Positions 13,039 through 58,646 of a stretch of DNA of 64,000 nt are shown one piece after another; the first letter of the stretch is position 1, and the number at the start of each line of letters is the position of its first letter. The stretch comes from an uncultured Ignavibacteria bacterium (GTDB lineage Bacteria; Zixibacteria; MSB-5A5; WJJR01; JAJRUJ01), in the NCBI GenBank assembly GCA_964461835.1, contig CAYWVO010000010.1:2775-66774 (forward strand), read 5' to 3'. The notes beneath the pieces were generated by a model, which was given only the letters and a program-made list of their open reading frames with translations, was not told the DNA's origin and did not search any database. Position numbers and translations under genes: made by a program.

Positions 13039-13046
13039 CGGTATCC

Positions 13047-25030: not shown

Positions 25031-25061
25031 AAGAAAAAGCCGGGAGGGTCTGCCTCCCGGC
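25031..25061 (-). terminator. Rho-independent terminator of the TSP3/dockerin gene
   Basis: Minus-strand RNA reads GCCGGGAGG-CAGAC-CCUCCCGGC (perfect 9-bp stem), followed by UUUUUCUU. It lies 29 nt after the stop at 25090. Confidence 0.75.
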
Positions 25062-25089
25062 CGGTATTTTACGTGTTTGGAGAGGTTGC

Positions 25090-34007: not shown

Positions 34008-34021
34008 AGTATACTTGTCGG

Positions 34022-37380: not shown

Positions 37381-37418
37381 CAAAAATAACCCGGCCCCTT
37401 CGGGGATTGGGGCCGGGT
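37381..37418 (-). terminator. Rho-independent terminator of gene 37445..39148
   Basis: Minus-strand RNA reads ACCCGGCCCC-(10-nt loop)-GGGGCCGGGU (perfect 10-bp stem), followed by UAUUUUUG. It lies 27 nt after the stop at 37445. Confidence 0.8.
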
Positions 37419-37444
37419 CCACAGGAGTAGAGCGCGGTTGAGTT

Positions 37445-41830: not shown

Positions 41831-41864
41831 AAACAAAAAAGCGGGGATCACGTGTGATCCCCGC
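41831..41864 (-). terminator. Rho-independent terminator closing the 57354..41887 operon (possibly bidirectional)
   Basis: Palindrome GCGGGGATCAC-GT-GTGATCCCCGC (41841..41864). On the minus strand it is followed by UUUUUUGUUUGUGG, 23 nt after the stop at 41887. It sits between convergent genes. Confidence 0.8.
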
Positions 41865-41886
41865 CAATTCCGTTTACGCAAATACC

Positions 41887-43842
41887 TTACGGTAACGGCT
41901 CTTCAAACCAATCGAGCATGACTCTAAACACCTCGATCATTGGCTCATACTCGAAGCCGTAAGGCGAAGTGCCAAACCACGCGGTCTTAAATACAGGATT
42001 GAGTACACTTGGGCCGATGTTCCGTGCTGCGACAACTTTCTCATGGGGGAAAGCCGTTCCGGCATACCTGCTCTGGTACAGGTAGAGCGCCTCGGCATTC
42101 ACGCCCAGGACCAGAAAGTTCGTTGCCGGAATGGTCTTGAACCGGAAGCCTTTCGGCACATTGTAGTAGTCCCGAATCACGCCGGGGATGAGATACTGAC
42201 CCGTACGCGCCGTGTCGACCGAAAGCGAAGGAAGGATACCGACAAAAGGTTCAGCCGGCAAGGCGCCGACGAAATCATCTTTACCCGGAATGAATTGCGT
42301 GCCTTCCGGCGGGAAACTCGATTTATAGAACCACGGAACATAGATTTCCTCAACGTCCGTGTAGAAGGAGGCAAATTGACCGCTCGGGTGCACCGTCGGG
42401 GAACTAATTCTGTTGCGCGGATCGTCGTCGTTATTGAGGAAACAGTTCCGTCCGAACACCCACAACTTGCCGCCAATGTTCAGATACCGGGCCAGTTGAC
42501 TGTGCACAGACGTCGGGATGACAGTGGCGTCATCATCATCCATGTAGAACACCAGTTCATACTGGCAGAATTTTTCGATCGGGATATCGATCGTTTGCTG
42601 GGGATCCCAGCGACGGATGAAATCCGGCGAGTCTTGATCGAGATCAATGCTGCCATTGGTCGCATCACGAAGCAAATTGAACACGTTTGCGATAGCGAGC
42701 GTGTCGTCTACCCCCCCCGAGATACCTGATCCCGCCGGGATGATTGGCACGGTGAACAGGTTGTAGTTAATGTCATCCACGATAAGAATACGGCGTTCCA
42801 GATGGGCATCGACGACTTTCAGGACCGCTTGTGAAGGCGTTGGATCGGGCGCGAACGCGTCATCCCGCGTCTGTACTTCAAAGAGAAAATATCCCACTCT
42901 CGTGGTAGCGGATTCCGGTTGGTTGCGCCACAAATCAATCAGCAGTGTTTGCTTAGCGGTGGTCCAGATGCCTTCCGGACGGCGTATCCACCCCTCGGAG
43001 GTCAGGGAATCTCCGGAATCGAGCGCCAATGAATTGGCGAGCGTATCTACCTCTGCTTCGCTGTTGAATGGGCCAAACAGACGCCACCGGTATTCAAAAT
43101 CCGGCTGCGTGCGCGGGTAATCCGAGGAGTCCGATCCGCTCCACTGCACAGATATCCCCGGATAAATCGGTGTCCGGCGAGCGATACTGATGTGGGTAAT
43201 GTTCTCCAGAAGGACGCTGTTCTCAATTTTCGTCTGCGGCCAGTGGTTGTTCCGCAGGTACTGCCGCCATTTAATGTCCGAGGAGGCCCCGTCGTCATCT
43301 ATCGCGCGGACGAACATATACTGTTGAATTGACTCCGAGACACAGTTCAAAGTGTCCTTAATGGTCACGGTATCCCCGTCAATAACCTCAAACCCAATTG
43401 AGTCGATATCACAGTCGATTGACCAGATGGTGTCGCCATCCTCGTTAACGCCAATTGCCACCTCATTCGTGTCGAATGAAGCAAAGAGACGGACTTCACC
43501 ACGGGTAGCCGTTTGAACCGAATCCACCCAGATATTGATCCAGTCATATTCGTCCTCGGGTGTGGTAAGGATGTAATCATCCGGATTACCGACTTCGAAG
43601 TCCCGCTTGACCGCGTACTGGTACTGTTCAATGGTTCCATCGTTATCCGTGCCATACCAGTAGATGGTCGGATTTCGCGAAAAGGTCGTTCCGTCAACCG
43701 GAATATTGGCGAAGAAAACTTCCGGCGGATTGTTATCCGGCGGCTCTCCTTCGTTAGTGAGTTTTCCGCACCCGGCGGCAAATAAAACGCCGATGACGGC
43801 GATCGTGAGCAACAGGTGAAGTTTCCGATACATCCTCAACAC
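41887..43842 (-). CDS. Large lipoprotein of unknown function (last gene of the OM module)
   Basis: MLRMYRKLHLLLTIAVIGVLFAAGC-GK lipobox. N-terminal half has Ig-like units with ...IYWYGTDNDGTIEQYQYAV... / ...DFEYRWRLFGPF.... The C-terminal half begins RRILIVDDINYN...YELVFYMDDDD...YLNIGGKLWVFG, resembling the VLVVDDD...YLDGGGSLFMTG region of the M6 protease at 31191..34007. Confidence 0.75.
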   Translation of the reverse strand: MLRMYRKLHLLLTIAVIGVLFAAGCGKLTNEGEPPDNNPPEVFFANIPVDGTTFSRNPTIYWYGTDNDGTIEQYQYAVKRDFEVGNPDDYILTTPEDEYDWINIWVDSVQTATRGEVRLFASFDTNEVAIGVNEDGDTIWSIDCDIDSIGFEVIDGDTVTIKDTLNCVSESIQQYMFVRAIDDDGASSDIKWRQYLRNNHWPQTKIENSVLLENITHISIARRTPIYPGISVQWSGSDSSDYPRTQPDFEYRWRLFGPFNSEAEVDTLANSLALDSGDSLTSEGWIRRPEGIWTTAKQTLLIDLWRNQPESATTRVGYFLFEVQTRDDAFAPDPTPSQAVLKVVDAHLERRILIVDDINYNLFTVPIIPAGSGISGGVDDTLAIANVFNLLRDATNGSIDLDQDSPDFIRRWDPQQTIDIPIEKFCQYELVFYMDDDDATVIPTSVHSQLARYLNIGGKLWVFGRNCFLNNDDDPRNRISSPTVHPSGQFASFYTDVEEIYVPWFYKSSFPPEGTQFIPGKDDFVGALPAEPFVGILPSLSVDTARTGQYLIPGVIRDYYNVPKGFRFKTIPATNFLVLGVNAEALYLYQSRYAGTAFPHEKVVAARNIGPSVLNPVFKTAWFGTSPYGFEYEPMIEVFRVMLDWFEEPLP

Positions 43843-43933
43843 CCCTTCTATCGTACCTCAAGTGAATACGTTATTTATTCCTCAAGTCCCCGAAACGCAA
43901 TATGTCACACTACGCACAATGCAATTATTGACA

Positions 43934-44825
43934 CCCTTTAAAACGTGAGCCGGAAGGTGAAGCGGTCGACATCACCCAAAACGCCCATGTCCTGCCGGGC
44001 GTAGTCCGCCTCCAGGCTCCGCTCGCCCAGCGGCAACCGGAAGCCCAACCCCCAGGTCATCCCCGACAGGTCGTGCTCAAACCGGTCACCAACCCGCAAG
44101 GCAAACATGTCGTTATACCAATATTCCAACCCCGCGTTGTACTTCTCCAAATTGTCCGACGGATGGGACCCCTCCATCGCAAACGTCGCCCGATGCCGCT
44201 CACCGTCCAACACATCGATCGCCGCACCAAAATGAAAGTTGATCGGCAACGGATACTCCTGCGAAATAAACGTCATGTCCGGACCAAAATTCGTAATCAC
44301 CATCGTAATCTTGAAGTTCCGAAACCCCGTGTTATAGTTGGTCCCCACGTCCGCCGCCCAACCGGTCGCACGCTCCTCCTCGTACAACTCGTCGATCACC
44401 TTCGCCGTCACCCCCAGCGAAAAACGGTCCGTCAAATACCGACTGTACGATACCCCAAACGCGTAATCCTTCGCCGAAAAGGTCCACCCCGGCGCACCCA
44501 GCGGGTACTCATACGTCGTCACCGACATATCCCCCGCCGATAAATTGTAAAACGAAAAACCCAGCACCCCGCCAAAATCCAGCGGCAACGCCAGACCCGC
44601 AAACCCGTAGTTGATCTCCGCCGGATACTCAACCCAGGTCAACACCACTTCCCGGCCGCCCAGCTGCACCAGACCCGCCGGATTGTAATACAACGCCGAG
44701 GCATCGTCCGCCACCGCCACAAACGCGCCGCCCATGCCGTCCGCACGCGCCGATACCCCAATCTCTAAAAACTGTGCACCCGTCGTACCTACCTTCGCCT
44801 GACCGTACACCAACGACGGCGCAAC
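43934..44825. repeat. 892-bp perfect direct repeat, copy 1 (partner 47599..48490)
   Basis: I compared the two copies line by line at an offset of 3665 nt and all 892 positions are identical. Identity starts 4 nt beyond the stop codon. It ends inside the signal-peptide coding region (codon 22/23), where A reads g at 44826 and B reads c at 48491. Confidence 0.95.
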
Positions 44826-44888
44826 GAGAAGCAATGCTGCGGCGCACATACCTACCACGAAGGATTTCAATTTCGGGCTCATACTCAC
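43938..44888 (-). CDS. PorV/PorQ-family-like outer-membrane beta-barrel, copy A
   Basis: GTG start, signal MSMSPKLKSFVVGMCAAALLLVAPSLVYG-Q. N-terminal GTTGAQFLEIGVSARADGMGGAFVAVADDASALYYNPAGL matches the PorV pattern (FL.I..dARa.gMG.a.vA...Da.s...NPA.l). Gly/Tyr-rich strands. The C-terminal ...RFTFRLTF ends in Phe. Confidence 0.65.
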   Translation of the reverse strand: MSMSPKLKSFVVGMCAAALLLVAPSLVYGQAKVGTTGAQFLEIGVSARADGMGGAFVAVADDASALYYNPAGLVQLGGREVVLTWVEYPAEINYGFAGLALPLDFGGVLGFSFYNLSAGDMSVTTYEYPLGAPGWTFSAKDYAFGVSYSRYLTDRFSLGVTAKVIDELYEEERATGWAADVGTNYNTGFRNFKITMVITNFGPDMTFISQEYPLPINFHFGAAIDVLDGERHRATFAMEGSHPSDNLEKYNAGLEYWYNDMFALRVGDRFEHDLSGMTWGLGFRLPLGERSLEADYARQDMGVLGDVDRFTFRLTF

Positions 44889-44932
44889 CGACTCCTTATC
44901 ATCACAGATTCACAATACTCTTCTCTACCCTT

Positions 44933-47572
44933 CTACTTAATGATCACGAGTTTCCCGATGTCGGTCCCCTGTTCGGATTCAATCGTATAGAGGTAAATTC
45001 CCGACACCACCGCCTGCGTGTTCTTGGAGATCAAGTCCCAATAGGCCTTGGAATCCGTATGCGAGAACGGCGCACCTTCATAATGTTCAATCTCTCGGAC
45101 GAGATCGCCGTCCAGGCTGAAGATTTTGATCGTGGCCTCCGAGGGCAAATTAACAAAATGAATGCGTCGGTCGCGTTCAGTCCAGCCCTCGCGGTTGGGA
45201 TCTTCGTATTGCCGCCCGCGATAATTGGCTGAAATCTTGTAGGGATTGGGATACACCGAGACCTCCAACCCCAATGATTCCGCCACGGCGGCTGAATAGG
45301 CCGGAAACGCCCGCTCCGAGTTCACCATGGGCGAGGACTCCAGCGGCTCCAGGTCATTCTGCGGGAAGCCAAAGTCAAATGCGGTCACCGCAAAATAATA
45401 CGATTCCGACGGCAACAGGTTGTCGATGGTGAACCGGTATTTACCGTACTGCAGCGTATCGTTGGTCGCTTCATCTACTGAATCGATAAGGGCTACCCGT
45501 TCAATGGGATTCTCAACTTCAACTCCGTGTTCCATGTAGGTATTGCCGCGGTTCCAGTCCTCTTTCTCGAAGTAGTACCGCTGGCTGCCCTCTGCCGTGT
45601 AATGTGTAAACGGATTTTCTTTGTTCGGATACTGTGTCGGATCGAAGTCGGGATCGTCAAACAGGGTGCGCAATTCTTCCAGCGTCAACGGGTGGTCCTT
45701 GTATACCCACCGGTCATCCGAACCGATTTGTGCCGTCATATCTTCCCGGAACGGCCGGAAGTCGACTATATCCCACGAGGCGATCAGGGCGAAGCTGTTG
45801 ACCTGATTCATATCGCCCATGTAGACCCGATATCCTTCGAAGTCATTCAGGAAGCTGAACGGATCGGCGGTCAATTCCGTCGTCGATCCGTACCATTCAA
45901 TTTCCACCTGTCCGGGTAGTGTGGTGATGTGCAGCTTCGGAGATTGCGGTGGGGGGGGGCCGGAGTAATCCGGAATACCATCACCCGCATACCAAACTGT
46001 ATCACAGCCATAGCAGACAACCGAATCACCAATAACGGAATCCTGGCAATTCGCGAGATACCTCAATCCGCGGCATTCATCGGCGACGCCGGTAATCGGA
46101 TCGGGTGTGCTGATTCCCGGGTTATCGAAAACCCAGGCCGCCCAGCGGGCGTTCACTGCCAGGTCCGTAAAGTCGATGTTGTCATTAAAGGTCCACGGAT
46201 CATCAGGAAGGTTTTCAGCATTATCGGGCTTCAGGTGGAAGTCCTCACCCGCGACATAACCGATGGTTACCTGCAGAGAATCGGCAACACCAATTTCGAA
46301 CGGGCCAAAAGACAGGAGATAACGCGTATCGTACCCATCGGCAAATGTCCGCGCCTGACTTTCGTGGGGCGGCAACCAGCCCTCATCCGAAAAGTCTTGC
46401 GCGGAGAAGACCTGGTCATAATCAAACTCGTTGTTGGACATATACCGATACTTATGTGCATCCCCGTCCGGGGTGCCCAGACCGCCGGAAATATTGCGAT
46501 CACCCGGCAATCGTTGCGGTCCCCAGTCCAGGTTGGTCTGCCCGTGTGAGTTCCACCAGTTAAAAGAATAATCAATGGGTCGCGGACCGCAGCCCCCCGG
46601 CGGAGTAGGTGAGCGTACCACGCGGGTCCCGGTCACCGCTTTGGGCGACCGATAATCAAAGACGCCACCGCTCGGGTCACCGTCATTATCGCTAATCCAG
46701 GCAATGTTAATCGTGTCCTGTGCGGGTTCGGATTCTCCACAGGGGATTGCCCCGGACAAACTCGGCACCGTCTCACGGAAACCACAAATATCATCCTGAA
46801 AACCGTTTAGCGTCGATGCATGGTACACGTCCGCATCAATATAAACTCCCATGTATAGTTTGCTGAGGCTGTCCTCACCGATGTTCTTGATGGTAAAATC
46901 AAGCAGGACAAAATCCTGGGCGTATGAATACGACCAGGCATACGACTTTTGAATGATTTTTAATCCTAATGGAACGTGAGGACCAGTAAAAGGATCAGGA
47001 GATACATATGCCTGATCGGTTAGTGTGTCTGTGTATTCGGCGATGAAGTCTTGTTCGGAGACTGCATCCTCCGAGAAGTTCGGGTTGCCGGGACGATTGG
47101 TCAGTTCGCGAATAATCCCCCCATTTTCGATGGTCTCCGGATACATCTCCGCGATATGCTGCCAACCATCATGGCCGGTCGAGGTCAGCGTATCAATCCC
47201 GCGAATGGCGCTAATCCAGAGGGCGCCCTGAAAAAGATAGTCAATGCTTGAACCGGCGGGGAATTCCGCCCCCACACACAGGCCGGTAACGTCATCGCAG
47301 AATTCACGGTCTTGACTGCCGAAGAATCCCCAGTTGGTCACGGAAAGATAGAAGTTGCCAACGTTATGGGTACGCAGGATCGTGTTTGGAACCTGCGCAG
47401 ACTTCGTCAATTGATGCTTATCAGAGATCGTGGTATTCTCACCATCAATATATTTTAGTCGAGCAGCCCCGGGCCGGGCCAGGCACGCGACCATCAATAG
47501 ACATGTCCCAATTCGAACCGCCAACCGCATAATATCCCCTTTCCGGAAACTCCTGATCTCTCGCATCGTCAT
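44933..47572 (-). CDS. ~870-aa secreted protein family member, paralog 1, with variant T9SS-like C-terminal domain
   Basis: Signal-like N-terminus (MRLAVRIGTCLLMVACLARPGAA). Alignable along its whole length with 48611..51262 and 51334..53934 (e.g. HNVGNFYLSVTNWGFFGS / HKVGNVWMTITNYGIFGS / HRVGNVWMTITNYGFFGS; FPAGS..YL.QGALW). C-terminal VYPNPYKISANYRG...RRIHFVNLPSEATIKIFSLDGDLVREI...VVSGIYLYTIES...GKLVIIK. Confidence 0.85.
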   Translation of the reverse strand: MTMREIRSFRKGDIMRLAVRIGTCLLMVACLARPGAARLKYIDGENTTISDKHQLTKSAQVPNTILRTHNVGNFYLSVTNWGFFGSQDREFCDDVTGLCVGAEFPAGSSIDYLFQGALWISAIRGIDTLTSTGHDGWQHIAEMYPETIENGGIIRELTNRPGNPNFSEDAVSEQDFIAEYTDTLTDQAYVSPDPFTGPHVPLGLKIIQKSYAWSYSYAQDFVLLDFTIKNIGEDSLSKLYMGVYIDADVYHASTLNGFQDDICGFRETVPSLSGAIPCGESEPAQDTINIAWISDNDGDPSGGVFDYRSPKAVTGTRVVRSPTPPGGCGPRPIDYSFNWWNSHGQTNLDWGPQRLPGDRNISGGLGTPDGDAHKYRYMSNNEFDYDQVFSAQDFSDEGWLPPHESQARTFADGYDTRYLLSFGPFEIGVADSLQVTIGYVAGEDFHLKPDNAENLPDDPWTFNDNIDFTDLAVNARWAAWVFDNPGISTPDPITGVADECRGLRYLANCQDSVIGDSVVCYGCDTVWYAGDGIPDYSGPPPPQSPKLHITTLPGQVEIEWYGSTTELTADPFSFLNDFEGYRVYMGDMNQVNSFALIASWDIVDFRPFREDMTAQIGSDDRWVYKDHPLTLEELRTLFDDPDFDPTQYPNKENPFTHYTAEGSQRYYFEKEDWNRGNTYMEHGVEVENPIERVALIDSVDEATNDTLQYGKYRFTIDNLLPSESYYFAVTAFDFGFPQNDLEPLESSPMVNSERAFPAYSAAVAESLGLEVSVYPNPYKISANYRGRQYEDPNREGWTERDRRIHFVNLPSEATIKIFSLDGDLVREIEHYEGAPFSHTDSKAYWDLISKNTQAVVSGIYLYTIESEQGTDIGKLVIIK

Positions 47573-47598
47573 GTCGACATCCTTTACGTCGCTCGGAT

Positions 47599-48490
47599 CC
47601 CTTTAAAACGTGAGCCGGAAGGTGAAGCGGTCGACATCACCCAAAACGCCCATGTCCTGCCGGGCGTAGTCCGCCTCCAGGCTCCGCTCGCCCAGCGGCA
47701 ACCGGAAGCCCAACCCCCAGGTCATCCCCGACAGGTCGTGCTCAAACCGGTCACCAACCCGCAAGGCAAACATGTCGTTATACCAATATTCCAACCCCGC
47801 GTTGTACTTCTCCAAATTGTCCGACGGATGGGACCCCTCCATCGCAAACGTCGCCCGATGCCGCTCACCGTCCAACACATCGATCGCCGCACCAAAATGA
47901 AAGTTGATCGGCAACGGATACTCCTGCGAAATAAACGTCATGTCCGGACCAAAATTCGTAATCACCATCGTAATCTTGAAGTTCCGAAACCCCGTGTTAT
48001 AGTTGGTCCCCACGTCCGCCGCCCAACCGGTCGCACGCTCCTCCTCGTACAACTCGTCGATCACCTTCGCCGTCACCCCCAGCGAAAAACGGTCCGTCAA
48101 ATACCGACTGTACGATACCCCAAACGCGTAATCCTTCGCCGAAAAGGTCCACCCCGGCGCACCCAGCGGGTACTCATACGTCGTCACCGACATATCCCCC
48201 GCCGATAAATTGTAAAACGAAAAACCCAGCACCCCGCCAAAATCCAGCGGCAACGCCAGACCCGCAAACCCGTAGTTGATCTCCGCCGGATACTCAACCC
48301 AGGTCAACACCACTTCCCGGCCGCCCAGCTGCACCAGACCCGCCGGATTGTAATACAACGCCGAGGCATCGTCCGCCACCGCCACAAACGCGCCGCCCAT
48401 GCCGTCCGCACGCGCCGATACCCCAATCTCTAAAAACTGTGCACCCGTCGTACCTACCTTCGCCTGACCGTACACCAACGACGGCGCAAC
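47599..48490. repeat. 892-bp perfect direct repeat, copy 2 (partner 43934..44825)
   Basis: See copy 1. The offset is exactly 3665 nt. Flanks diverge immediately: a/t at 43933/47598 and g/c at 44826/48491. Confidence 0.95.
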
Positions 48491-48556
48491 CAATACTACT
48501 GCACTCAATACAACCGCACATGTCACGAGTTTCCGCATTGTCCTCACTCCACTCAC
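47603..48556 (-). CDS. PorV/PorQ-family-like outer-membrane beta-barrel, copy B
   Basis: GTG start. The signal peptide MSGVRTMRKLVTCAVVLSAVVLVAPSLVYG-Q differs from copy A only before ...LVAPSLVYG. The remaining 293 residues are identical because the DNA is identical. Confidence 0.65.
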   Translation of the reverse strand: MSGVRTMRKLVTCAVVLSAVVLVAPSLVYGQAKVGTTGAQFLEIGVSARADGMGGAFVAVADDASALYYNPAGLVQLGGREVVLTWVEYPAEINYGFAGLALPLDFGGVLGFSFYNLSAGDMSVTTYEYPLGAPGWTFSAKDYAFGVSYSRYLTDRFSLGVTAKVIDELYEEERATGWAADVGTNYNTGFRNFKITMVITNFGPDMTFISQEYPLPINFHFGAAIDVLDGERHRATFAMEGSHPSDNLEKYNAGLEYWYNDMFALRVGDRFEHDLSGMTWGLGFRLPLGERSLEADYARQDMGVLGDVDRFTFRLTF

Positions 48557-48610
48557 AGCCTTTGCCTATCATTGCCCACGGGATGATTTTCACCCCTTTG
48601 GCTCTAAACT

Positions 48611-51262: not shown

Positions 51263-51333
51263 TCACTAACCCTGCCTGTTATCTGTGCCGGGTGACGACC
51301 CGACACGCGAATGTTGTTGGTTCTCGTTCGTCA

Positions 51334-53934
51334 TCATTTGATTATGACAAATTTGCCTACCTGCGTGCCGGTTTCGGCCTCTACGGTGTAAAGGTACATG
51401 CCGGACACGATTGCCTGCGTGTTTTTCGTGATCAAATCCCAATAGGCGGTGGAAGTGGTTTCGGTAAACGGTTGGCCCGGCCCGTGTTGGATTTCCCGGA
51501 TTATGTCGCCGTCCAGCGAATAAATGGTGATCTTCGCCTCAGCGGGAAGATTAACGAAATGGATACGACGGGAACGCTCCGACCACCCGGAACGATCACG
51601 ATCTTCATAGCCCCGCCCCCGGTAATCAGCGGAAATCTTATACGGGTTGGGATACACACCTACCTTCAAGCCTTCTTCGACAACCCGGTCGGCCGAGTGG
51701 CTGGGAAAGGCCAACGCCGCGTTGATCAACGGCGATGATTCCAGGGGGGCCAAAATTTCGCGGTTACCGTAATCGAACGTGGTGACGGCAATATAATACG
51801 GCTGTGACGGGAGCAAATTGTCAAATTCGATCTTATACTCACCGTACGACAGCAAAACACTATCCTCATCTCTGAATTCTACCGTGTTGACCCGCTCAAT
51901 CCGGTTATAGACCGTATCAGTGCCGTTAATGTCTGCAATATTCCCTTGGTTCCAATCCTGCGGTTCAAAATAGAACAGGGAGTCGTGCGCATCACGAAAC
52001 GGGTCGTCCGGAGAGCCGTAGCGGTTCGGATCAAAATCTTCGCCGTACCATTTCTTCAACGTATCCAGCGGTACGGGATACAGTTCCTGCGTCCACTTGT
52101 CGGAGGACGGATTATAATCATAGCGCCGAAAATCGATCAAATCCCACGAGGCGACCAGGGCGTAGTTGGTCAGGGTGTTGAAATCCGCCACATAGACCCG
52201 ATATCCCTCAAAATCGGGACGCAGCGTGAAATCATCCGGGGTAAGCTCCGATTCCCGCCCGTTCCAGCGAACGGTGAGTCGCCCCGGGCCGGCCTGAATG
52301 TTCAGATCGGGTGCCGGCGGGGGCGGCGGCCCTTCGAAATCGGGAACTCCATCACCAGCATACCATACCGTATCGCAGTCGGCCAGCTCAACGGTATCAC
52401 CCGACGGGATCGTATCGCGGCAATTCACCAGGTAAAACAAGCCCGCACAGCCGTCCTCGTCCGTGTCCACGCCCGGGTTATCAAAGACCCACGCTGCCCA
52501 TTGGGCGTTGACCGCGAAATCAGAAAAATCGAGTTTTTCGTAAAACGGGTTCGGATCGAGTGGATCAAAATACTCTTCAAAATCGTCGCCGCCGACATGG
52601 AAATTTTCTCCGCCCACATAGCCCACCGTGACGTACGTCGACTCACCCGGCGCCATGTCATCAAGCGGGCCAAAAGAGAACAGGTACCGCGTATCATATC
52701 CATCGGCGATATCGGTGGCCAATCCCGATTGTTTGGGAGCACGCCAATCGGTGGAATCGGAAAAATCAACGCCGGAAAACAACTGATCGTAATCAAATTC
52801 TCTATTCGACATGATGTAGTATTTATTCAAATCACCGGCCGGCGTCCCATCACCGCCCGTGCCGTAATCGCGGTAGTTGGTCTTTTTGCGCGGACCCCAA
52901 TCAAATCGCGTATCGCCATTGGAGGTCCACCAATTAAACGAATAATTCAGCGGCGCCGGCCCGCAGAGTTCCGCGTCTGACGGACCCCGCACCACACGCG
53001 TTCCCGAGATCCCCGTAGGGCTCATGTAATTAAAAATACCACCAGAGATCGGATCACCGTCGTTATCGGCCGTCCAGGCGATATTAATGGTATCTTGCAA
53101 ACCCGGATACGGGGACGGCACGGTCCGCAGATATCCGGAGTAATCATCCGCATACCCCGTACCCGGCGACGCCTCATGCCAGCAGTCGGCGTCCACATAC
53201 AGCGCCATGTATGGTTTTTCGATGACCTCGTCACTGATGTTTTGCAGAATAAAATCAATCAGAATAAAATCCTGCGCATAATCATACGACCAGGAATAGC
53301 TCTTCTGGGTAATGCGCAGACCGATCGGGAGGTGCGGCCGTCCGGCGTCAGGGTCCGGCGGCACAAATGACTGATCCGTCAGTGTGTCTGTATAGACCGC
53401 GATGTAATCCTGTTCCGAAACTGCATCCTCCGAAAAATACTCCGACGATTGACGATTGGAGAGTTGAATGATCTCTCCCGCCGCTCCCTCGTCGGGAAAC
53501 GTCTCGTTGATAGGTTGCCAGCCATCGGCGCCCACCGAAACCAGCGTATCGTACCCCTTGATCGCGCCAAACCACAAGGCGCCTTGAAACAGGTAGTTAA
53601 TTCCCGATCCCGCCGGAAATTCAAATGAGGGCGCCGGCTGCCCGGCGTAGGGCCCCACCTGCTCCGTTAACTGGTTCTGGCGGAATTGACTGCCAAAAAA
53701 ACCGTAATTGGTAATGGTCATCCAAACATTACCGACACGATGGCTCCGATTTTGTACATTCGGAATCGCTGTGGTCTTACCCAACTGCTCACGCATCTCA
53801 TGTTCGGCGGTGGGGTCTTCTTTCATGCGGGCTGAGGCGGGTTGTATCATCACAAATAAAAGCGGGACGAGAAGGACCCCGACGATGCCGCGGCACCGGT
53901 TCCTCATACCCATTGTGCTCCTCCAGACATTCAT
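51334..53934 (-). CDS. ~870-aa secreted protein family member, paralog 3, with variant T9SS-like C-terminal domain
   Basis: Signal GIVGVLLVPLLFVMIQPASA. Closest to paralog 2. C-terminal VYPNPYKISADYRG...RRIHFVNLPAEAKITIYSLDGDIIREI...IVSGMYLYTVEA...GKFVIIK. Confidence 0.85.
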   Translation of the reverse strand: MNVWRSTMGMRNRCRGIVGVLLVPLLFVMIQPASARMKEDPTAEHEMREQLGKTTAIPNVQNRSHRVGNVWMTITNYGFFGSQFRQNQLTEQVGPYAGQPAPSFEFPAGSGINYLFQGALWFGAIKGYDTLVSVGADGWQPINETFPDEGAAGEIIQLSNRQSSEYFSEDAVSEQDYIAVYTDTLTDQSFVPPDPDAGRPHLPIGLRITQKSYSWSYDYAQDFILIDFILQNISDEVIEKPYMALYVDADCWHEASPGTGYADDYSGYLRTVPSPYPGLQDTINIAWTADNDGDPISGGIFNYMSPTGISGTRVVRGPSDAELCGPAPLNYSFNWWTSNGDTRFDWGPRKKTNYRDYGTGGDGTPAGDLNKYYIMSNREFDYDQLFSGVDFSDSTDWRAPKQSGLATDIADGYDTRYLFSFGPLDDMAPGESTYVTVGYVGGENFHVGGDDFEEYFDPLDPNPFYEKLDFSDFAVNAQWAAWVFDNPGVDTDEDGCAGLFYLVNCRDTIPSGDTVELADCDTVWYAGDGVPDFEGPPPPPAPDLNIQAGPGRLTVRWNGRESELTPDDFTLRPDFEGYRVYVADFNTLTNYALVASWDLIDFRRYDYNPSSDKWTQELYPVPLDTLKKWYGEDFDPNRYGSPDDPFRDAHDSLFYFEPQDWNQGNIADINGTDTVYNRIERVNTVEFRDEDSVLLSYGEYKIEFDNLLPSQPYYIAVTTFDYGNREILAPLESSPLINAALAFPSHSADRVVEEGLKVGVYPNPYKISADYRGRGYEDRDRSGWSERSRRIHFVNLPAEAKITIYSLDGDIIREIQHGPGQPFTETTSTAYWDLITKNTQAIVSGMYLYTVEAETGTQVGKFVIIK

Positions 53935-54006
53935 TCGTTTTGCCGGTACATCTCCACCGGGGGCGGACAGGCGCCGTCCCCGGCGAACATGTTTTCTCCA
54001 CGGAGC

Positions 54007-57000
54007 TTAGAAATTCACTCCCAGGCCGACCCGGATGTTGCGTCCCGCACCGTAATTAGTCGGCGCATCATCCGACTCGAGGCCGGTATATACGATACCG
54101 TCAATGTTGAGCGCGGTATTCGGGCGACCAGTCGCACCGTACACGTTGTCGATGTTCTTGGTGTCGAAAATGTTGTTGACCCATACTTCAAACGAATACC
54201 GGAGATTCCAGATCGCGAAATCCTTGTTGAAACGGACGTCGACCGTTGACGAGGCCGGCATCCGCTCGGAGTTCGGCAACGGATCTTCACCCGGCACCAG
54301 TGTTTCCGCGGTGCCCGGGTGTTCCCGTGAGGGTGTGTACGGGAAGCCGGAACCATACTGCCAGAGGATATTCAAGCCCCAGTTGTCCGGCAATTTCAAA
54401 CCGAACAGCCGCGGATGATCCCCGGGGGGGATCCGCAAGTCAAGGTTTAATGTCAACTGGTGCCGAACGTCCCAGTCCAGCGGGGACTCCTGAATAGGAA
54501 TGTCGCGGTTGTAGTAGTTGTCGTAGTAGTTCGACGATTCCGAAGAGGACTTCCCGTAGGCGAACGCGTAGTTATACGTCGCGTAACCTGAGGTGTAGTT
54601 TCCGTACTTCTTTTCCAGCTCCAGCTCGAGACCCCGGGCCCGCGCATAGTCATGGTTTTCATAGACGTTGCGCGAGATCGGCCCGATGTTCTCAATCGTG
54701 GTGTTGATTAGCCCGAAGTCGTCTTTGTAGAAGCCTTGAATCGACAGCACGTACTCCGGCGACATCGCGTACTGAACACCAAACTCATACTGGATGGTCT
54801 TTTTATAGTCAATATTGGAGTTGCCGATAATCCCGAAGGCGTTGGAGGCCTGCGAGGCCCGCTTGTACATGTAATCCAGGTCGGGCATCTGATAAAAATG
54901 CCCGTAGTTGAAGAAGACCTTCGCCTTATCGGAGATCGGATAGGAAAACGCGATCCGCGGGGAGAATTTATCCTGGCGGTCGATAATCTCTTTCTCCTCC
55001 ACGCTCTGTTTTTCCTGTTCATCTTCAACCGCCTCGACATCCTGAATGAAGAAATCGTAACGGAACCCGAGGTTCGCCACCATCTGGCCGTACTCCATCT
55101 TGTCCCGGACATAGAACGCGCCGGTCAGCGGCTCACGGACATAGAAGTCACGGAAAGTGCCGCGCTCCGGCCATGGCCCGCCATCCGGATAGCCGTCATA
55201 CGGATAATAGGGGTACTGCAGCTCGCCCATATTCAGCGAGTTATTGGTCAGTTTGAAACCGGTCTTGACTTCATGCTCTTTGGCCAATTGGCTGGTGAGG
55301 TCAACGTTAAAAGTGGTAATCTGCAGATCTCGCTCGTGCCAGAGGGCCCATTGATTCCAGCCGAAATCCCAGAATCCATCCGCCGGGTCCCATTTGCCGT
55401 TACCATTCACATCCGTGAACGGTTCACCCAGATCATACTTAAAATTGGGCGGATCATAAATGCCGTTACCATTCAAATCCTGATACGGGATATTCATCAT
55501 CCAGGGATCGTCCGGGCCGTCATAGCGGGAATTCCGCGAGAGGTCTTGATATGGTTCACCGAACTCGTACCCCAGCAGCCATGAATCCCAGACACCGTTG
55601 TTGTTGACATCCGTGAACGGTTCACCCAGCGAGTGGTCGCCGTCGACATAGGGTTCCGGCTGATCCTGGTTTACCGGACGGCCGCGTTCCGGGTTGTAAG
55701 TGCCGTCATTGTTGGAATCAAAGATCAGCACGTCGCCGGAATCCCAGCGTCCGTTGTTGTTGGCATCGACAAACGGTTCGCCGCTGTCCGGATCGTACTT
55801 GCCGTTGTTGTTGAAATCATACACCAGAGAGTCGGAGGTGGCGTCCGGGAAATTCGGATCAGGGGGATCGTACCGGCCGTTCGGGATGTTATCCAGGTAG
55901 ATATCACCAAAATTGTAGTTTGGATCACCCGTAAAGAGGTTGGTATCCGGCCATTCGTTGATGAACTCTTCCGGAGGATCATAGACAGCATTGTTGTTTC
56001 GGTCCTGGAAGCTTTCCCACTGATCATACAGCAGGAAGGCATCCGGCCGTTGCCGCCCGCCCGGCGTATTCGGATCGCCCGGCATCTGTGAATACAGCCG
56101 GCTGTACCGGGAGAGAATCACCTGGTAGTACGTCGATTTATTCACGTTATGGAGGAACGTCAGAGAAAAGCGATCGTTGTGATCCTCAATCCAGCCCACC
56201 GTGCCCGGCGTGTAGCGGTAGGCCCAGCCATACCGGTCTTCGGAAGGCATCCGACGTTCCCAGGACCCTTTCCAGTTGAAGGTCAGGTGCATGTCCGGCG
56301 TCATGCGATAGTTGATCTTTACCCCGGCATTGGCGGCGTTGTCCTGACGATCTTTGATTTTGAGGCCAAGGAATTTCACTTCACGGAAATCAGCGCGACG
56401 GGATATAGAAGTGACTTCGTTGTACGGGAAATACGTGTCGTGCCGTTCGATGTCCCCGGTAATATTATAGAACAGTTTTCCGCGGAACAGCGGTCCCACA
56501 TCCAGTCCCCAACCGGACAACGGTTCCGGACCACCGAGGTTGAATTCCACCCGGTCATAGTTGAAGGAGTTGGCATTCAAATTTTCCGTGCCGAAATCGT
56601 CCGTCCACAACTGGAAATGACCGGAAGTAATCCGCCGACCGGACTTGGTCGCCACGTTAATAACACCCGACGTGGCATTCCCGTACTCGGCGTCCCAGCC
56701 ACCTTTCAAGATTGACAGGTTCTCAATATCCTGACCGGAAAGGTTCAGCGATTCCGTTGGCCCACGACCACCGAGTGGGTCTTTCAATTCTACACCGTCA
56801 ACGATGTAGATCAACTCGTTGGCTCGGCCGCCACGGATATGGATTTGTCCGTCCCGATTGACCACGCCGACTTGGGTGCGCAAAATATCCTCGACATTGG
56901 TCACCGGCATACTCTGAATGCGTTCGGAGGTCACGGTCCGACGAGTCGAAGTCACGTCAACCTGAATGGTCTTTTTTTCCGACTGCACGACAATCGTCTT

Positions 57001-57354
57001 GTCGATGTCGAGTACGGCCTGGGAAATCTCCAAATTAATTTGCTCAGTCAGACCGGGCGAGATCGTCACATCAGTATATTCCAATGTTTGGTAGCCGATC
57101 ATCCTCACGATTACGGTATAAGTTCCCGCCGGCACCGCCTGGATTTGGAAACTGCCGTCCATATCGGTTAGGGCACCCAGGGTTGTCCCCGCTACCTGGA
57201 CCGGACAGTTCGGGACGGGTTCTTTTGTCTTGGCGTCGATGACCGTTCCGGCAATTTTACCGTGCGTCTGCGCCATGACTTGTGTCGAGGCAGCCACCAC
57301 GAGCAGTGCCGCGGCACAGATAAGCAAAAACTTTGCGCTTCCTCGATTAAGCAT
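54007..57354 (-). CDS. TonB-dependent-receptor-like outer-membrane barrel (Oar/SusC-like: CarboxypepD_reg + plug + barrel) with a DxNxNG repeat insertion
   Basis: Signal KFLLICAAALLVVAASTQVMA. Carboxypeptidase-regulatory-like domain GKIAGTVIDAKTKEPVPNCPVQVAGTTLGALTDMDGSFQIQAVPAGTYTVIV. Plug VTSERIQSMPVTNVEDILRTQVGVV...IHIRGGRANELIYIVDGVELKDPLGG. The C-terminal ...GAGRNIRVGLGVNF ends in Phe. About 240 aa (roughly residues 425-665) carry repeated GEPF(T/V)D.N.NG.(W/Y)D units. Confidence 0.85.
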   Translation of the reverse strand: MLNRGSAKFLLICAAALLVVAASTQVMAQTHGKIAGTVIDAKTKEPVPNCPVQVAGTTLGALTDMDGSFQIQAVPAGTYTVIVRMIGYQTLEYTDVTISPGLTEQINLEISQAVLDIDKTIVVQSEKKTIQVDVTSTRRTVTSERIQSMPVTNVEDILRTQVGVVNRDGQIHIRGGRANELIYIVDGVELKDPLGGRGPTESLNLSGQDIENLSILKGGWDAEYGNATSGVINVATKSGRRITSGHFQLWTDDFGTENLNANSFNYDRVEFNLGGPEPLSGWGLDVGPLFRGKLFYNITGDIERHDTYFPYNEVTSISRRADFREVKFLGLKIKDRQDNAANAGVKINYRMTPDMHLTFNWKGSWERRMPSEDRYGWAYRYTPGTVGWIEDHNDRFSLTFLHNVNKSTYYQVILSRYSRLYSQMPGDPNTPGGRQRPDAFLLYDQWESFQDRNNNAVYDPPEEFINEWPDTNLFTGDPNYNFGDIYLDNIPNGRYDPPDPNFPDATSDSLVYDFNNNGKYDPDSGEPFVDANNNGRWDSGDVLIFDSNNDGTYNPERGRPVNQDQPEPYVDGDHSLGEPFTDVNNNGVWDSWLLGYEFGEPYQDLSRNSRYDGPDDPWMMNIPYQDLNGNGIYDPPNFKYDLGEPFTDVNGNGKWDPADGFWDFGWNQWALWHERDLQITTFNVDLTSQLAKEHEVKTGFKLTNNSLNMGELQYPYYPYDGYPDGGPWPERGTFRDFYVREPLTGAFYVRDKMEYGQMVANLGFRYDFFIQDVEAVEDEQEKQSVEEKEIIDRQDKFSPRIAFSYPISDKAKVFFNYGHFYQMPDLDYMYKRASQASNAFGIIGNSNIDYKKTIQYEFGVQYAMSPEYVLSIQGFYKDDFGLINTTIENIGPISRNVYENHDYARARGLELELEKKYGNYTSGYATYNYAFAYGKSSSESSNYYDNYYNRDIPIQESPLDWDVRHQLTLNLDLRIPPGDHPRLFGLKLPDNWGLNILWQYGSGFPYTPSREHPGTAETLVPGEDPLPNSERMPASSTVDVRFNKDFAIWNLRYSFEVWVNNIFDTKNIDNVYGATGRPNTALNIDGIVYTGLESDDAPTNYGAGRNIRVGLGVNF

Positions 57355-57672
57355 CCTGACCTCCTTCTAACACCTCACACAATCAACGAATGTATTATTC
57401 TGTCTTACGAGACCAAAAAGGAACACCGCGATGAGAACCTGCTTGCTTTGAATGGAGTACTGTCGCAGCGACAACTGTCCTCGAAGTACACTCTCACAAC
57501 CGCCCTGCGCTCTCGCTGTGCCCCAACACCTCTTCACGAGACATCCTGTCCTGCTCGGCTGCCACCTGGGTGAAACATACTGACGGCATTCGTCGTAGGA
57601 AAAAACCGAGCGGGTTGACCTCCTCCCTTTCACCTTGGTGCGACGCTGCCCGCGCCGCGGAAACAGAATAAA

Positions 57673-57702
57673 TATTTAGTTTTTCATCCGGTTTTAAGTC
57701 AA
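57673..57702 (-). promoter_or_regulatory. Weak candidate promoter for the OM-module operon
   Basis: On the minus strand: TTGACT (57702..57697), 18-nt spacer, TAAATA (57678..57673), in the only AT-rich patch of the 458-nt gap. It would give a leader of about 310 nt. Confidence 0.2.
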
Positions 57703-57812
57703 GCTGTTTTTGGGTTTTCATCACCTTTTAGTCATTTTCCCAAAAGGAGTTACCCCTCCCTTCAGTCACCATACCACAACGGGGAGCAAATATTCCCCAA
57801 ATTCGCTAAAAT

Positions 57813-58646
57813 TTACGGGCGATGAAAGCAGCGGGATGGATCCTCCATGGTTTGAGCAAGTTCTTCGATGGCGGCAAGATCGATCGGATCGATCACACAA
57901 TCCTGTGGTGATTCGCCCAACGTGCGAGTGAAGCTGCTGACGATGCTCGCTTGTACTTCCGTGACAGTCAACGTCTTCGATAGTAGACTCCAGAGATCAA
58001 TCATGTGATTGGCATTTTTGACAGAACTGCCGCGGAATAACGCAGTTGGGACGATCTCGGCCTCCCGCAGATAGATCGTCCCATGTTGCAGCAGCCTATT
58101 CGCTGACACCAGTTGAGCGGCGGCCACCACCTTGCGGCCACCGCTGTCGATCTCATACGCCGTGGTGCTGGAGGCGCACACTCCTCCCCCGGGAACCGGC
58201 CGGGTCCCTCCCGGACGCTTTGTGTCATCACCGCGCTCGGCTCGCACTCCAAGGACAAGCAGACCAGCGGAAATCATCTCAGATATTTTTGTAAACGCGG
58301 CTTTGAACCCCGTCGCGAACTCGGCCCGTCGATGTAAGTCTATGATTACCGAATAGTTAATTTCATTGCGGTGCAATAGCGCGCGACCACCCGTCGGCCG
58401 TCGCACCACATCGATACCGGCCTTCGTGCAAGCGGCGAGGTCGACCGCTCGCTCAAGGGTCTGATGGTACCCCAGCGAGACTGTCGGCGGCAGAAATTGG
58501 TAAAACCGAAGGATGAAAGGAAACCGTTGATCGGCAATGCGGCGATAGAGATACAAATCTGCCGCCATCTGCCAGGCACCGGGTCGTTGCACATAGGACA
58601 GTACGCACCAGGAAGATTCACCTGAGTGTTCACCGGAAGGGGTCAT
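57813..58646 (-). CDS. Lipoate-protein ligase / octanoyltransferase family (BPL_LplA_LipB domain) protein
   Basis: LRFYQFLPPTVSLGYHQ...VVRRPTGGRALLHRNEINYSVI...GGRKVVAAAQLVSANRLLQHGTIYL matches the LplA/LipM-type catalytic-domain pattern. Confidence 0.75.
   Translation of the reverse strand: MTPSGEHSGESSWCVLSYVQRPGAWQMAADLYLYRRIADQRFPFILRFYQFLPPTVSLGYHQTLERAVDLAACTKAGIDVVRRPTGGRALLHRNEINYSVIIDLHRRAEFATGFKAAFTKISEMISAGLLVLGVRAERGDDTKRPGGTRPVPGGGVCASSTTAYEIDSGGRKVVAAAQLVSANRLLQHGTIYLREAEIVPTALFRGSSVKNANHMIDLWSLLSKTLTVTEVQASIVSSFTRTLGESPQDCVIDPIDLAAIEELAQTMEDPSRCFHRP

Follow-up and report, generated by a model that had tools for sequence, protein, structure and literature searches.

In Porphyromonas, the PorQ barrel holds the T9SS substrate PorZ on the cell surface through an uncleaved CTD (PMC10947112). 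PorQ-PorZ and PorV-PorU of the P. gingivalis attachment complex each combine a PorV/PorQ-family barrel and a large T9SS substrate that is probably tethered to it by a retained, atypical CTD. For cargo with type B CTDs, the cargo gene is followed by that of its own PorP/SprF-like barrel, which anchors the cargo non-covalently at the surface, and several such pairs can occur in one genome (PMC9143113). In the SusC/SusD and RagA/RagB utilisomes of Bacteroidota, a TonB-dependent transporter (TBDT) that bears a carboxypeptidase-regulatory-like N-terminal extension is encoded alongside surface accessory proteins. RagAB is fed by gingipains. Myxococcus Oar-type receptors combine CarboxypepD_reg, plug and a large barrel, and we know of no case in which Oar is encoded with PorV-family barrels or T9SS cargo.

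Here, we analysed a window of 64,000 nucleotides of Zixibacteria-like DNA, in which genes for a TBDT (T), large secreted proteins (P), PorV/PorQ-family barrels (V) and a lipoprotein (Lp) are clustered. As in PorQ-PorZ and PorV-PorU, a barrel of this family is paired with a putative large T9SS substrate. Unlike in those pairs, the P head is predicted to be a beta-supersandwich on an FN3-like stalk, where PorZ has propellers and PorU a peptidase; the P and V genes are adjacent, amplified as a cassette, and embedded between TBDT and lipoprotein genes; and V misses both equivalog cutoffs in a host that belongs to Zixibacteria, not Bacteroidota. The order of a P gene followed by its barrel gene recalls the type B CTD pairs (PMC9143113), but the barrel is of the PorV/PorQ family and the CTD of P resembles type A apart from an insertion; the CHU_C model for type B reached no more than 15.9 bits, on one paralog. 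Like the utilisomes, the locus encodes a TBDT with the N-terminal extension together with surface accessory proteins and, like RagA/RagB in particular, has secreted T9SS peptidases encoded nearby. It departs from them in that T lies far below the SusC/RagA cutoffs and carries a Ca-loop-repeat insert, no SusD-like protein is present, and a barrel, not a lipid anchor, would retain the accessory protein P. T resembles Oar in domain architecture. The original prediction knew of no described system with this combination, and we found no published description either in the literature on Zixibacteria with T9SS or TonB, or in that on PorV/PorQ with TonB-dependent proteins or paralogs.

Organisation of the cluster

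The region 41887..57354 contains seven co-directional ORFs, all on the minus strand, in the transcription order T-P-P-V-P-V-Lp. The intergenic gaps are 72, 71, 54, 30, 44, and 95 nt. An intrinsic terminator closes the cluster (41840..41865, minus strand), with an 11-bp stem containing 7 G-C pairs, a 4-nt loop and a following T-run (TTTTTGTTT). It sits between convergent genes and is the strongest terminator-like site of the region; the overall tally of such sites did not exceed chance, and only this one stood out. On the other side, the T gene is preceded by a 458-nt leader without ORF (57355..57812, minus strand). The layout given in the original prediction, with seven minus-strand genes spaced by 30-95 nt, a 458-nt non-coding region on the 5' side and a strong terminator at the end, was thus recovered in full. 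Just downstream of the module, three proteins with canonical CTDs are encoded, including S8 and M6 peptidases, lending indirect support to the use of T9SS by this genome. An ArnT-like PMT_2/TPR glycosyltransferase is also encoded in the neighbourhood.

P proteins have a predicted supersandwich head and a divergent T9SS CTD

The three P genes, all on the minus strand, encode secreted proteins of 866 aa (P3, 51334..53934), 883 aa (P2, 48611..51262, 60% identical to P3) and 879 aa (P1, 44933..47572, 53% identical to P3). P2 is followed by the barrel VB and P1 by VA. They had been described as paralogs that match no recognised family, and this description holds: they share 53-60% identity, searches of Pfam, NCBIfam, and PDB returned no family match except a sub-threshold CTD, and the P profile found no PDB relatives. 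The AF2 model of P3 (pLDDT 83, pTM 0.77) divides the protein into a signal peptide, a head (~55-490), a Cys-containing hairpin module (~495-526), an FN3-like region (~540-760) and the CTD (~760-866). P is therefore predicted, from this model, to comprise a beta-supersandwich head, an FN3-like stalk and a divergent T9SS CTD. Foldseek matched the P3 model to the N-domains of GH116, GH94 and dextran dextrinase and to the P1 domain of YidC, all at a TM of about 0.2. These are non-catalytic beta-supersandwich domains, and the matches identified no ligand or active site in the head.

The tails of the three proteins had been likened to a T9SS sorting domain. Curated models did not reach their cutoffs, with 20.2-20.8 bits on TIGR04183 (cutoff 23) and 15-19.7 bits on PF18962 (cutoff 27). 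The resemblance itself stood: hhalign aligned the P C-terminus with canonical CTDs of this lineage at 95.3% probability (E 2.3e-8), the AF2 model forms a beta-sandwich of 6-7 strands at 759-864, and the alignment shows the type A motifs VYPNPY and SGxYLY as well as IIK at the C-terminus. The P CTD thus combines homology, the sandwich fold and the PNP, G-x-Y and terminal K features of type A CTDs with a family-specific insertion of about 25 aa. Its best NCBIfam matches, weak at 12-21 bits, are the C-termini of PorZ and PorU, which are the only two proteins known to keep their CTD. On the PorZ model NF052228, P scored 18-21 bits against a cutoff of 260, in the CTD region only, and the AF2 model shows no propeller; a PorZ-like protein was accordingly rejected. 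A PorU-like C25 sortase was rejected as well, with 12-13 bits on NF033707 against a cutoff of 420, no Cys invariant in 66 homologs and a Foldseek match to PorU at a TM of 0.08.

The P family is large (972 clusters at 50% identity, E<=1e-30) and heavily expanded: tandem arrays contain up to 4 copies, and a genome can have several loci. The P proteins of the module form one clade within it. Most family members carry the same special CTD and occur away from any V gene, in tandem arrays or other settings, which means that V acts in trans or that this CTD needs no V. In one such context, with MFS and C1-peptidase genes, the ~400-aa proteins encoded beside P are not recognisable PorV-family barrels. 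The proposal that cargo genes carry their own PorV-type partner applies to the module, where P and V are adjacent, but not to most of the family.

V barrels belong to the PorV/PorQ family and score closer to PorQ

VB (47603..48556, minus strand; NF033709 and PF19572) has 317 aa when read from its GTG start, although the ATG at 48538 is the likelier start. VA (43938..44888, minus strand; NF033709) has 316 aa. The mature parts of the two proteins are identical and their signal peptides differ. Both scored 215.9 bits on the PorV/PorQ-family model NF033709 (cutoff 90), and four orthologs scored 197-224; VB gave 34.6 bits on PF19572. Neither equivalog assignment was reached. On the PorV model NF033710, the window proteins gave 81-82 bits and the orthologs 49-82 against a cutoff of 250. 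On the PorQ model NF033711 (cutoff 220), they gave 110.2 and 116-132 bits, respectively, the match of V covering only model positions about 5-210. The PorQ score exceeded the PorV score in every ortholog tested. The original prediction of PorV-like barrels is thus right as to family; the proteins are not PorV proper and score nearer to PorQ. Because the PorV cutoff was missed by a wide span (82 versus 250) and the PorQ score was higher (110 versus 220), stable anchoring as by PorQ would fit V better than shuttling as by PorV.

A four-gene unit is conserved across Zixibacteria

The seven genes had been regarded as a self-contained module. Comparison with other genomes revises this: the conserved unit comprises four genes, T-P-V-Lp, and the window holds an amplified variant. 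Homologs are co-localised in many genomes, as had been anticipated, in the same order and at the same chromosomal position, even at loci whose Lp is 25-34% identical to that of the window. Of the outcomes named beforehand as refuting the original prediction, namely failure on PorV-family models, membership of the large proteins in a well-characterised family and lack of co-localisation, none was observed. In a map of 79 loci built with custom HMMs, T, V, and Lp were found only together with P and in invariant order, with 0 counter-examples, a tally that covers 16 complete loci and another 13 truncated at contig ends. Loci of the forms T-P-V-Lp and T-P-V-P-V-Lp have one P gene per V gene; in the window and its nearest relatives, 3 P genes accompany 2 V genes. 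A 1:1 dosage is expected of a stoichiometric partner rather than of a catalytic shuttle. The conserved synteny extends to the housekeeping genes lplA-like, rplM, rpsI, rpsB, and tsf, so adjacency alone overstates the functional linkage of the module.

The fixed, housekeeping-like position across the phylum would suit a part of the Zixibacterial T9SS machinery, in which P and V are the counterpart of PorZ-PorQ or PorU-PorV, processing or anchoring other cargo, and T and Lp are accessory outer-membrane components. The closeness of V to PorQ, the weak CTD matches to PorZ and PorU, and the adjoining T9SS cargo and glycosyltransferase genes point the same way, and a beta-supersandwich, typical of carbohydrate-binding domains, would suit LPS or glycan handling. 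Against this, P has no C25 peptidase domain, no Cys that is invariant (66 homologs) and neither of the two propellers found in PorZ, and its scores on the PorZ and PorU models (12-21 bits) are far from the cutoffs of 260 and 420. The duplication of P with diverging heads, in a heavily expanded family, is also unlike a single-copy machine part, and the core components of the attachment complex include no TBDT (PMC10947112). We consider this explanation unlikely.

V copies are kept nearly identical while P heads diverge

The VA and VB genes share a block of 892 nt that is 100% identical (43934..44825 and 47599..48490, delimited by exact extension and alignment), and beyond either end of it the identity between the copies collapses. 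In all 11 genomes with two V genes, V1 and V2 are 97.4-100% identical in DNA, values of 100% in short-read assemblies being possibly inflated by repeat collapse, whereas the adjacent P1 and P2 are 61-75% identical. Across 8 species, the P1 and P2 orthologs fall in separate clades, placing the P duplication before the speciation of these 8 genomes as judged from sequence, and in the same species the V copies are still 99.8-100% identical. The combination of an old P duplication and near-identical V copies argues that V has been homogenised by repeated gene conversion. The ends of the tract differ from genome to genome, and in 6 of the 11 it extends into the CTD-coding end of P. Together with the contrast between V and P, this indicates that anchor and CTD evolve as one unit while the heads diverge. 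The pattern is a clear case, found in nature, of variable heads on a constant dock, kept by gene conversion.

A different reading of the same data takes P as mainly a variable surface coat or adhesin family, linked to T and Lp by position only, and the identical V genes as an assembly artefact or a very recent, meaningless duplication. The P family is indeed very large, with tandem arrays lacking T, V or Lp; assembly from short reads can make the copies of a repeat artificially identical, and many V homologs sit on contigs of 1-2 kb. However, the two V copies have distinct flanks and signal peptides in 11 independent genomes, some with MFD-type names that suggest long reads. At one locus of the L020 type, whose MFD name may point to a long-read assembly, the V copies are 98.1% identical. 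An artefact also fits poorly with P copies that separated before the split of 8 species beside V copies at 99.8-100%, with tract ends that vary between genomes, and with a T-P-V-Lp order that holds down to 25% Lp identity. This reading is therefore very improbable. The V repeat explains why these loci are fragmented in short-read MAGs.

T has the anatomy of an uptake transporter and Lp is a novel lipoprotein

T (54007..57354, minus strand; 1115 aa) was predicted to be a TonB-dependent barrel with CarboxypepD_reg and plug domains, and all three Pfam domains were found: PF13715 (CarbopepD_reg_2, 73.9 bits), PF07715 (Plug, 47.3 bits) and PF00593 (TonB_dep_Rec_b-barrel, 77.2 bits). The protein consists of a signal peptide, the CarboxypepD_reg-like N-terminal extension, a TonB-box-like segment DKTIVVQ, the plug and the barrel. 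Plug and barrel both score above cutoff and, with the TonB-box-like segment, identify T as a TBDT. DKTIVVQ comes after the N-terminal extension and before the plug, a position kept in orthologs. A D/N/P/G-rich insert of ~230 aa (about aa 430-660) contains six DxNxNGxxD Ca-loop-like repeats, which are conserved in 8 orthologs. PDB chains showed weak similarity to T in the plug and N-terminal extension only. The suggested SusC-like identity was not supported: TIGR04056 gave 87.4 bits (cutoff 368) in a match confined to the N-terminal 240 aa, and the signature TIGR04057 gave 14.4 against 46. A SusC/SusD-type PUL was likewise rejected, as no module protein matched SusD and the Lp model is not all-helical and TPR-like.

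The CarboxypepD_reg, plug and barrel architecture is common to Oar-type proteins, and work on Myxococcus PopC has reportedly linked Oar to protein secretion. By analogy, T might help P, Lp or some other protein to cross or enter the outer membrane, with V as a cargo-dedicated shuttle from the T9SS translocon, a role in which PorV-family barrels do act (PMC10947112). The export of P is already explained by its Sec signal peptide and T9SS-homologous CTD, and the 1:1 dosage and the homogenisation of V are more in keeping with a stoichiometric partner than with a shuttle that is recycled. A TonB-box-like segment is, moreover, typical of importers. We give an export role little credence.

Lp (41887..43842, minus strand; 651 aa) was expected to be a lipoprotein, and it has a lipobox-like FAAGC whose Cys25 is invariant among 25 homologs. 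Its AF2 model (pLDDT 83) shows about three Ig/FN3-like domains (~40-345) followed by an alpha/beta domain (~350-651), and Foldseek with the whole model returned generic Ig/FN3 matches only. Lp, its profile and its C-terminal domain had no sequence match in Pfam, NCBIfam or PDB, and weak Pfam signals across the 25 homologs were not consistent (Y_Y_Y in 2 of 25, at E 0.05).

A possible barrel-anchored complex for nutrient capture

Taken together, we tentatively favour, at slightly less than an even chance, a lineage-wide Zixibacterial outer-membrane module whose products form one surface complex for nutrient capture and TonB-powered import, with P held by V. In such a complex, T would serve as the energised import channel and Lp as an accessory lipoprotein, surface or periplasmic. 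P would be kept on the surface, neither released nor linked by a sortase, its unusual retained CTD binding V, a dedicated PorQ-like barrel encoded immediately downstream, on the pattern of PorQ and PorZ in Porphyromonas. Once duplicated, the P-V cassette would place several different heads on one constant anchor, and recurrent gene conversion would keep the anchor genes, and often the CTD-coding end of P, identical as the heads diverge. The data themselves give the gene order, the family assignments, the conservation across genomes, the concerted evolution and the predicted folds; physical binding of P to V, retention of the CTD, the complex with T and Lp, the direction of transport and the substrate are what we infer here. 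The import direction is suggested by the full uptake-type anatomy of T, with N-terminal extension, TonB-box-like segment, plug and barrel. Peptides or a glycan are guesses at the substrate.

A more specific form of this proposal is doubtful: a utilisome that is barrel-anchored, not lipid-anchored, in which interchangeable heads delivered by T9SS are permanently docked through the retained CTD on PorQ-like barrels beside the Ca-loop TBDT and the novel lipoprotein, gene conversion keeping the dock constant. No such design is known from Bacteroidota. If so, T9SS anchoring barrels would for the first time be functionally coupled to a TonB-dependent importer, and a family of about 1,000 sequence clusters, so far without a function, would acquire one.

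In Bacteroidota, barrels of the PorV/PorQ family are familiar chiefly as general components of the T9SS. Here, they appear in an uncultured phylum as cassette partners of a specific cargo family, a PorQ-like barrel genetically welded to a TBDT and evolving in concert across duplicated copies. The cluster suggests a manner of assembling nutrient-capture complexes that is so far undescribed. Docking of P on V, if true, would extend surface anchoring by a retained CTD from two components of the machinery, PorU and PorZ, to cargo with an ordinary function. It would also connect T9SS with TonB-dependent uptake beyond Bacteroidota, and would open a first way into the P head domain and Lp, both large families that are uncharacterised.

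The leader of the cluster

The far border of the leader is an LplA-like gene (57813..58646). A search of its 458 nt against Rfam gave no family at E<=1, and no riboswitch or known RNA was detected. Sigma-54 activators flank the module at four loci (L001, L005, L080, and L081), which prompted a search for a sigma-54 promoter 5' of T. This candidate was rejected, since the leader has no -24/-12 match within 2 mismatches and matches across the window were fewer than expected by chance. Neither scan of the leader thus yielded a substrate clue from a riboswitch or regulator motif. A TTGACT-18 nt-TAAATA element, unscored in the promoter scan, is readable by eye in the leader at ~57702..57673.

The seven-gene cluster is an amplified form of a conserved four-gene module

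The seven minus-strand ORFs of the original prediction were confirmed at exactly the predicted positions. In transcription order, they encode a TonB-dependent transporter (TBDR), T (54007..57354, 1115 aa); two paralogous surface proteins, P3 (51334..53934, 866 aa) and P2 (48611..51262, 883 aa); an outer-membrane barrel, VB (47603..48556, 317 aa); the third paralog, P1 (44933..47572, 879 aa); a second barrel, VA (43938..44888, 316 aa); and a lipoprotein, Lp (41887..43842, 651 aa). The intergenic gaps are, in order, 72, 71, 54, 30, 44, and 95 nt. A 458-nt leader (57355..57812) separates T from an LplA-like gene, and a minus-strand terminator (41865..41840), with an 11-bp stem of 7 G-C pairs and a following T-run, lies beyond Lp. 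It is the top-scoring terminator-like site of the region and, since the total count of such sites there is not above chance, the only notable one.

The closest homologs of P were found in Candidatus Zixiibacteriota MAGs, and the window is collinear with Zixibacterial contigs beyond the module, in the order module, PMT_2/TPR glycosyltransferase, proteins with type IX secretion system (T9SS) C-terminal domains (CTDs), with an S8 peptidase among them, alpha/beta hydrolase, rplM, rpsI, rpsB, tsf, frr, uppS, and cdsA. Distant homologs (Lp at 25-34% identity, V at 57-61%) were traced to contigs that all have the same order: a TBDR of ~1125 aa, a large protein of ~885 aa, a PorV-like barrel of ~315 aa, and a lipoprotein of ~615-700 aa. 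P relatives were scanned in one genome per GTDB species (480 stretches, 72 loci returned), and T, P, V, and Lp were mapped on 79 loci with custom HMMs. In the mapped loci, T, V, and Lp occurred solely with P, without a single counter-example, in the orders T-P-V-Lp, T-P-V-P-V-Lp, or T-P-P-(V-P-V-Lp), the last in the window and its two closest relatives. With two further loci (L080 and L081) included, the complete loci number 16, and contig ends truncate another 13. The neighborhood conservation expected for the module was thereby borne out; all seven genes are present as proposed, but the fixed order identifies the conserved unit as four genes, T-P-V-Lp, which is amplified in the window.

Immediately upstream of the module, L001, L005, L006, and L080 carry an LplA-like gene, which L081 lacks at this place. 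A sigma-54 activator, an enhancer-binding protein of ~975 aa with TPR and GAF domains, is encoded upstream in L001, L005, L080, and L081. In the window, this position is taken by a ThyX gene instead, and no sigma-54 promoter was found in the 458-nt leader. On the other side, a gene for a 793-aa ArnT/PMT_2-type glycosyltransferase fused to TPR repeats (39440..41821, plus strand) converges on the module terminator; it adjoins the module in L001 and L081 and lies ~6 kb away in L006. Just downstream of the module, three minus-strand genes (31191..39148) encode canonical T9SS-CTD proteins, all with FlgD_ig/Por_Secre_tail C-termini: a 567-aa protein of unknown type (37445..39148), an S8 subtilase (34022..37015), and an M6 immune-inhibitor-A-like peptidase (31191..34130). 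The S8 gene is a conserved module neighbor in L001, L005, L080, and L081.

V belongs to the PorV/PorQ family

VA and VB scored 215.9 bits on NF033709 (cutoff 90) and are therefore genuine PorV/PorQ-family barrels. Both fell below the equivalog cutoffs of PorV (82 versus 250), PorQ (110 versus 220), and PorV2 (83 versus 325). Four V orthologs from other genomes behaved in the same way, with the PorQ model highest of the three in each. The proposed PorV-like character thus holds at the level of the family, but the PorV equivalog cutoff is missed and PorQ scores higher. In the L060 region 4300..7346, there is a second, distinct PorV/PorQ-family barrel, with PorV2 (NF052325) as its best model at 115.8 bits, below the cutoff; it is followed by a 659-aa protein without family match, an AgcS amino-acid carrier, a P-family gene, and a P5C dehydrogenase. 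L068 also has a similar barrel upstream of a P gene. As at least one P-bearing genome contains a PorV2-best barrel, V is not the sole PorV/PorQ-family member in the phylum.

P combines a predicted supersandwich head with a divergent CTD

P1-P3 share 53-60% identity. Their sole family signal is a set of sub-threshold CTD matches (TIGR04183, 20-21 bits, cutoff 23), together with weak matches to the C-termini of PorZ and PorU. A profile of the last 112 residues of 66 homologs was compared with the canonical CTDs of the lineage, comprising the S8, M6, and 567-aa proteins of the window, three orthologous S8 proteins, and four proteins that join a P head to a standard tail. The profiles matched with 95.3% probability (E 2.3e-8), which identifies the P tail as a real but divergent type-A-like CTD, as its resemblance to a T9SS sorting domain had suggested. 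A family-specific insertion of ~25 residues follows the first YPNPY strand. The AlphaFold2 model of P3, built on a 66-sequence alignment, is confident (pLDDT 83, pTM 0.77); a large beta-supersandwich (about 55-490) forms its head, followed by a small module with a hairpin, a region resembling FN3, and the sandwich of the CTD. Among PDB structures, Foldseek matched it best to non-catalytic supersandwich domains at the N-termini of dextran dextrinase, GH116, GH94 phosphorylases, and an exo-arabinanase, and to the YidC P1 domain. All these matches are local, with a whole-chain TM of ~0.2, and none reaches a catalytic domain. The P sequence profile gave no match in the PDB.

An exhaustive P profile search yielded 7702 clusters (50% identity) at E<=1e-3 and 972 at E<=1e-30; the weakest matches may cover FN3 or CTD parts alone. 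In longer relatives, the head is joined to canonical CTDs that exceed the threshold, to FG-GAP repeats, Big_5, or fn3, and to no known enzyme domain. Several genomes hold many P loci each. Zixibacterial P genes also form tandem arrays of up to four (e.g., L053, L058, L061, and L062), and others have MFS transporters and C1 peptidases, or an amino-acid carrier, nearby, in every case with T, V, and Lp absent. Divergently arranged P genes surround an MFS_1 transporter in L002/L037, L039, L042, L043, L046, L063, L078, and L003, a context that also holds a ~400-aa protein without family match and a Peptidase_C1_2 (aminopeptidase C-like) gene. A neighbor-joining tree of 134 full-length sequences places the P proteins of the module in a single clade (39 module sequences and 6 others); four of these six are on P-only contigs of <=3.3 kb and two are lone copies in long contigs.

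T has importer anatomy and Lp is an uncharacterized lipoprotein

T contains a CarboxypepD_reg-like N-terminal extension, a plug, and a barrel, each exceeding its Pfam cutoff, and a TonB-box-like DKTIVVQ between the extension and the plug, giving the complete anatomy of an importer. Alternatively, T could have an Oar-like role in export. Membership of the SusC/RagA family was rejected (87 bits versus a cutoff of 368; signature motif 14 versus 46), and no close relative of T was found among solved structures. An insert of ~230 residues (aa ~430-660), presumably in an extracellular loop, is rich in D, N, P, and G (15% D, 13% N, 11% P) and carries six DxNxNGxxD repeats, often preceded by GEPF. All eight aligned orthologs have 5-7 such repeats, which resemble Ca2+ loops of the EF-hand or dockerin type.

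Lp has a lipobox-like FAAGC, with Cys25 invariant across 25 homologs, and no match in Pfam, NCBIfam, or the PDB. In its model (pLDDT 83), an alpha/beta domain follows about three Ig/FN3-like domains, and Foldseek returned generic Ig matches only. T and V add new members to known superfamilies, both failing specific subfamily tests; P and Lp are uncharacterized families.

V copies are repeatedly homogenized

VA and VB share a block of 892 nt at 100% identity (43934..44825 and 47599..48490), a feature absent from the original prediction. It begins just past the divergent signal peptides and ends 4 nt after the stop codon, with a collapse of similarity beyond either end. The same pattern was observed in all ten other two-V genomes, with V1 and V2 98.1-100% identical in DNA. 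P1 and P2 of these genomes are 65-75% identical in DNA and, in protein, 60-69% in the body and 79-100% in the last 110 residues. In eight of these species, P1 orthologs group together and P2 orthologs likewise (73-88% between species versus 60-69% within genomes), indicating that the P-V duplication predates the species and that V, which diverges by up to 19% among them, has been homogenized repeatedly. Conversion tracts span 0.8-1.5 kb, a conservative estimate that backs off 60 nt per end. Their ends are genome-specific, which indicates independent conversion events, and in 6 of 11 genomes they extend 83-544 nt into the CTD-coding end of P. The 100% identity of V is an upper bound, as repeat copies can be forced into identity by short-read assemblers; V1 and V2 are 98.1% identical in the L020-type locus, whose MFD name suggests long-read assembly. 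The linkage of T and Lp could be merely positional and the V duplicates artefactual, a reading that the cross-genome data oppose. Many V homologs sit on 1-2 kb contigs, which fits a near-identical V repeat breaking short-read assemblies, and MAGs probably under-represent the module loci or contain them in fragments.

A barrel-anchored, utilisome-like reading of the module

PorZ is a T9SS substrate whose CTD stays uncleaved, and the outer-membrane barrel PorQ keeps it at the cell surface; PorU, which partners PorV, also retains its CTD (PMC10947112). For type-B CTD cargo, the anchors are PorP-like barrels (PMC9143113). A stable heterodimer of P and V, with V acting as a dock and not as a shuttle, would fit five features: the PorQ-like barrel, the divergent, family-specific CTD of P, the position of the V gene directly after P, the 1:1 P:V gene dosage in most genomes, and the joint homogenization of V and the CTD while the heads diverge.

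Accessory lipoproteins of the Lp type accompany TonB-dependent importers. From the anatomy of T, the accessory Lp, and the features of the proposed P-V dimer, we infer a barrel-anchored, utilisome-like nutrient-capture complex, together with its physical contacts, transport direction, and substrate. For the substrate there are no more than hints: the secreted S8 and M6 peptidases nearby, and amino-acid and peptide genes around other P loci, would suit peptides, and the predicted supersandwich fold of the P head would suit a glycan. The module could alternatively be the phylum's own PorQ/PorZ-type attachment machinery, as its housekeeping-like chromosomal position and the resemblances to PorQ, PorZ, and PorU would favor; the fold of P, its lack of an invariant Cys, and its duplication and expansion argue against this.

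Within our incomplete coverage of the literature, we found no published description of the T-P-V-Lp combination, the P-V cassette, or V homogenization. T9SS barrel-anchoring and TonB-dependent uptake each have precedent and their coupling, a new variation, is what we infer, so the module is not categorically new. Its pattern is robust, phylum-wide, and evolutionarily striking, and the proposed architecture is new and testable.

Other features of the window

A minus-strand GldA/GldF/GldG-like ABC system (9731..13991) consists of ABC_tran, an ABC-2 membrane protein, and ABC_transp_aux with DUF7088; a DUF4340 protein comes next. This set is consistent with an FCB-type envelope or gliding-related transporter. 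A cohesin-domain protein (3073..3945) and a dockerin-type-I protein with a weak DUF6055 match (15095..16789) are both encoded on the minus strand, suggesting cohesin-dockerin surface assemblies in this organism. Between frr and tsf, where the surrounding housekeeping synteny is conserved, a minus-strand 539-aa ORF with thrombospondin type-3 repeats (25090..26709) overlaps the 5' end of the extended frr ORF (24354..25178). With 465 aa and two Thy1 matches, the ThyX (Thy1) protein (58734..60131, plus strand) suggests a flavin-dependent thymidylate synthase that is tandem-duplicated or fused.
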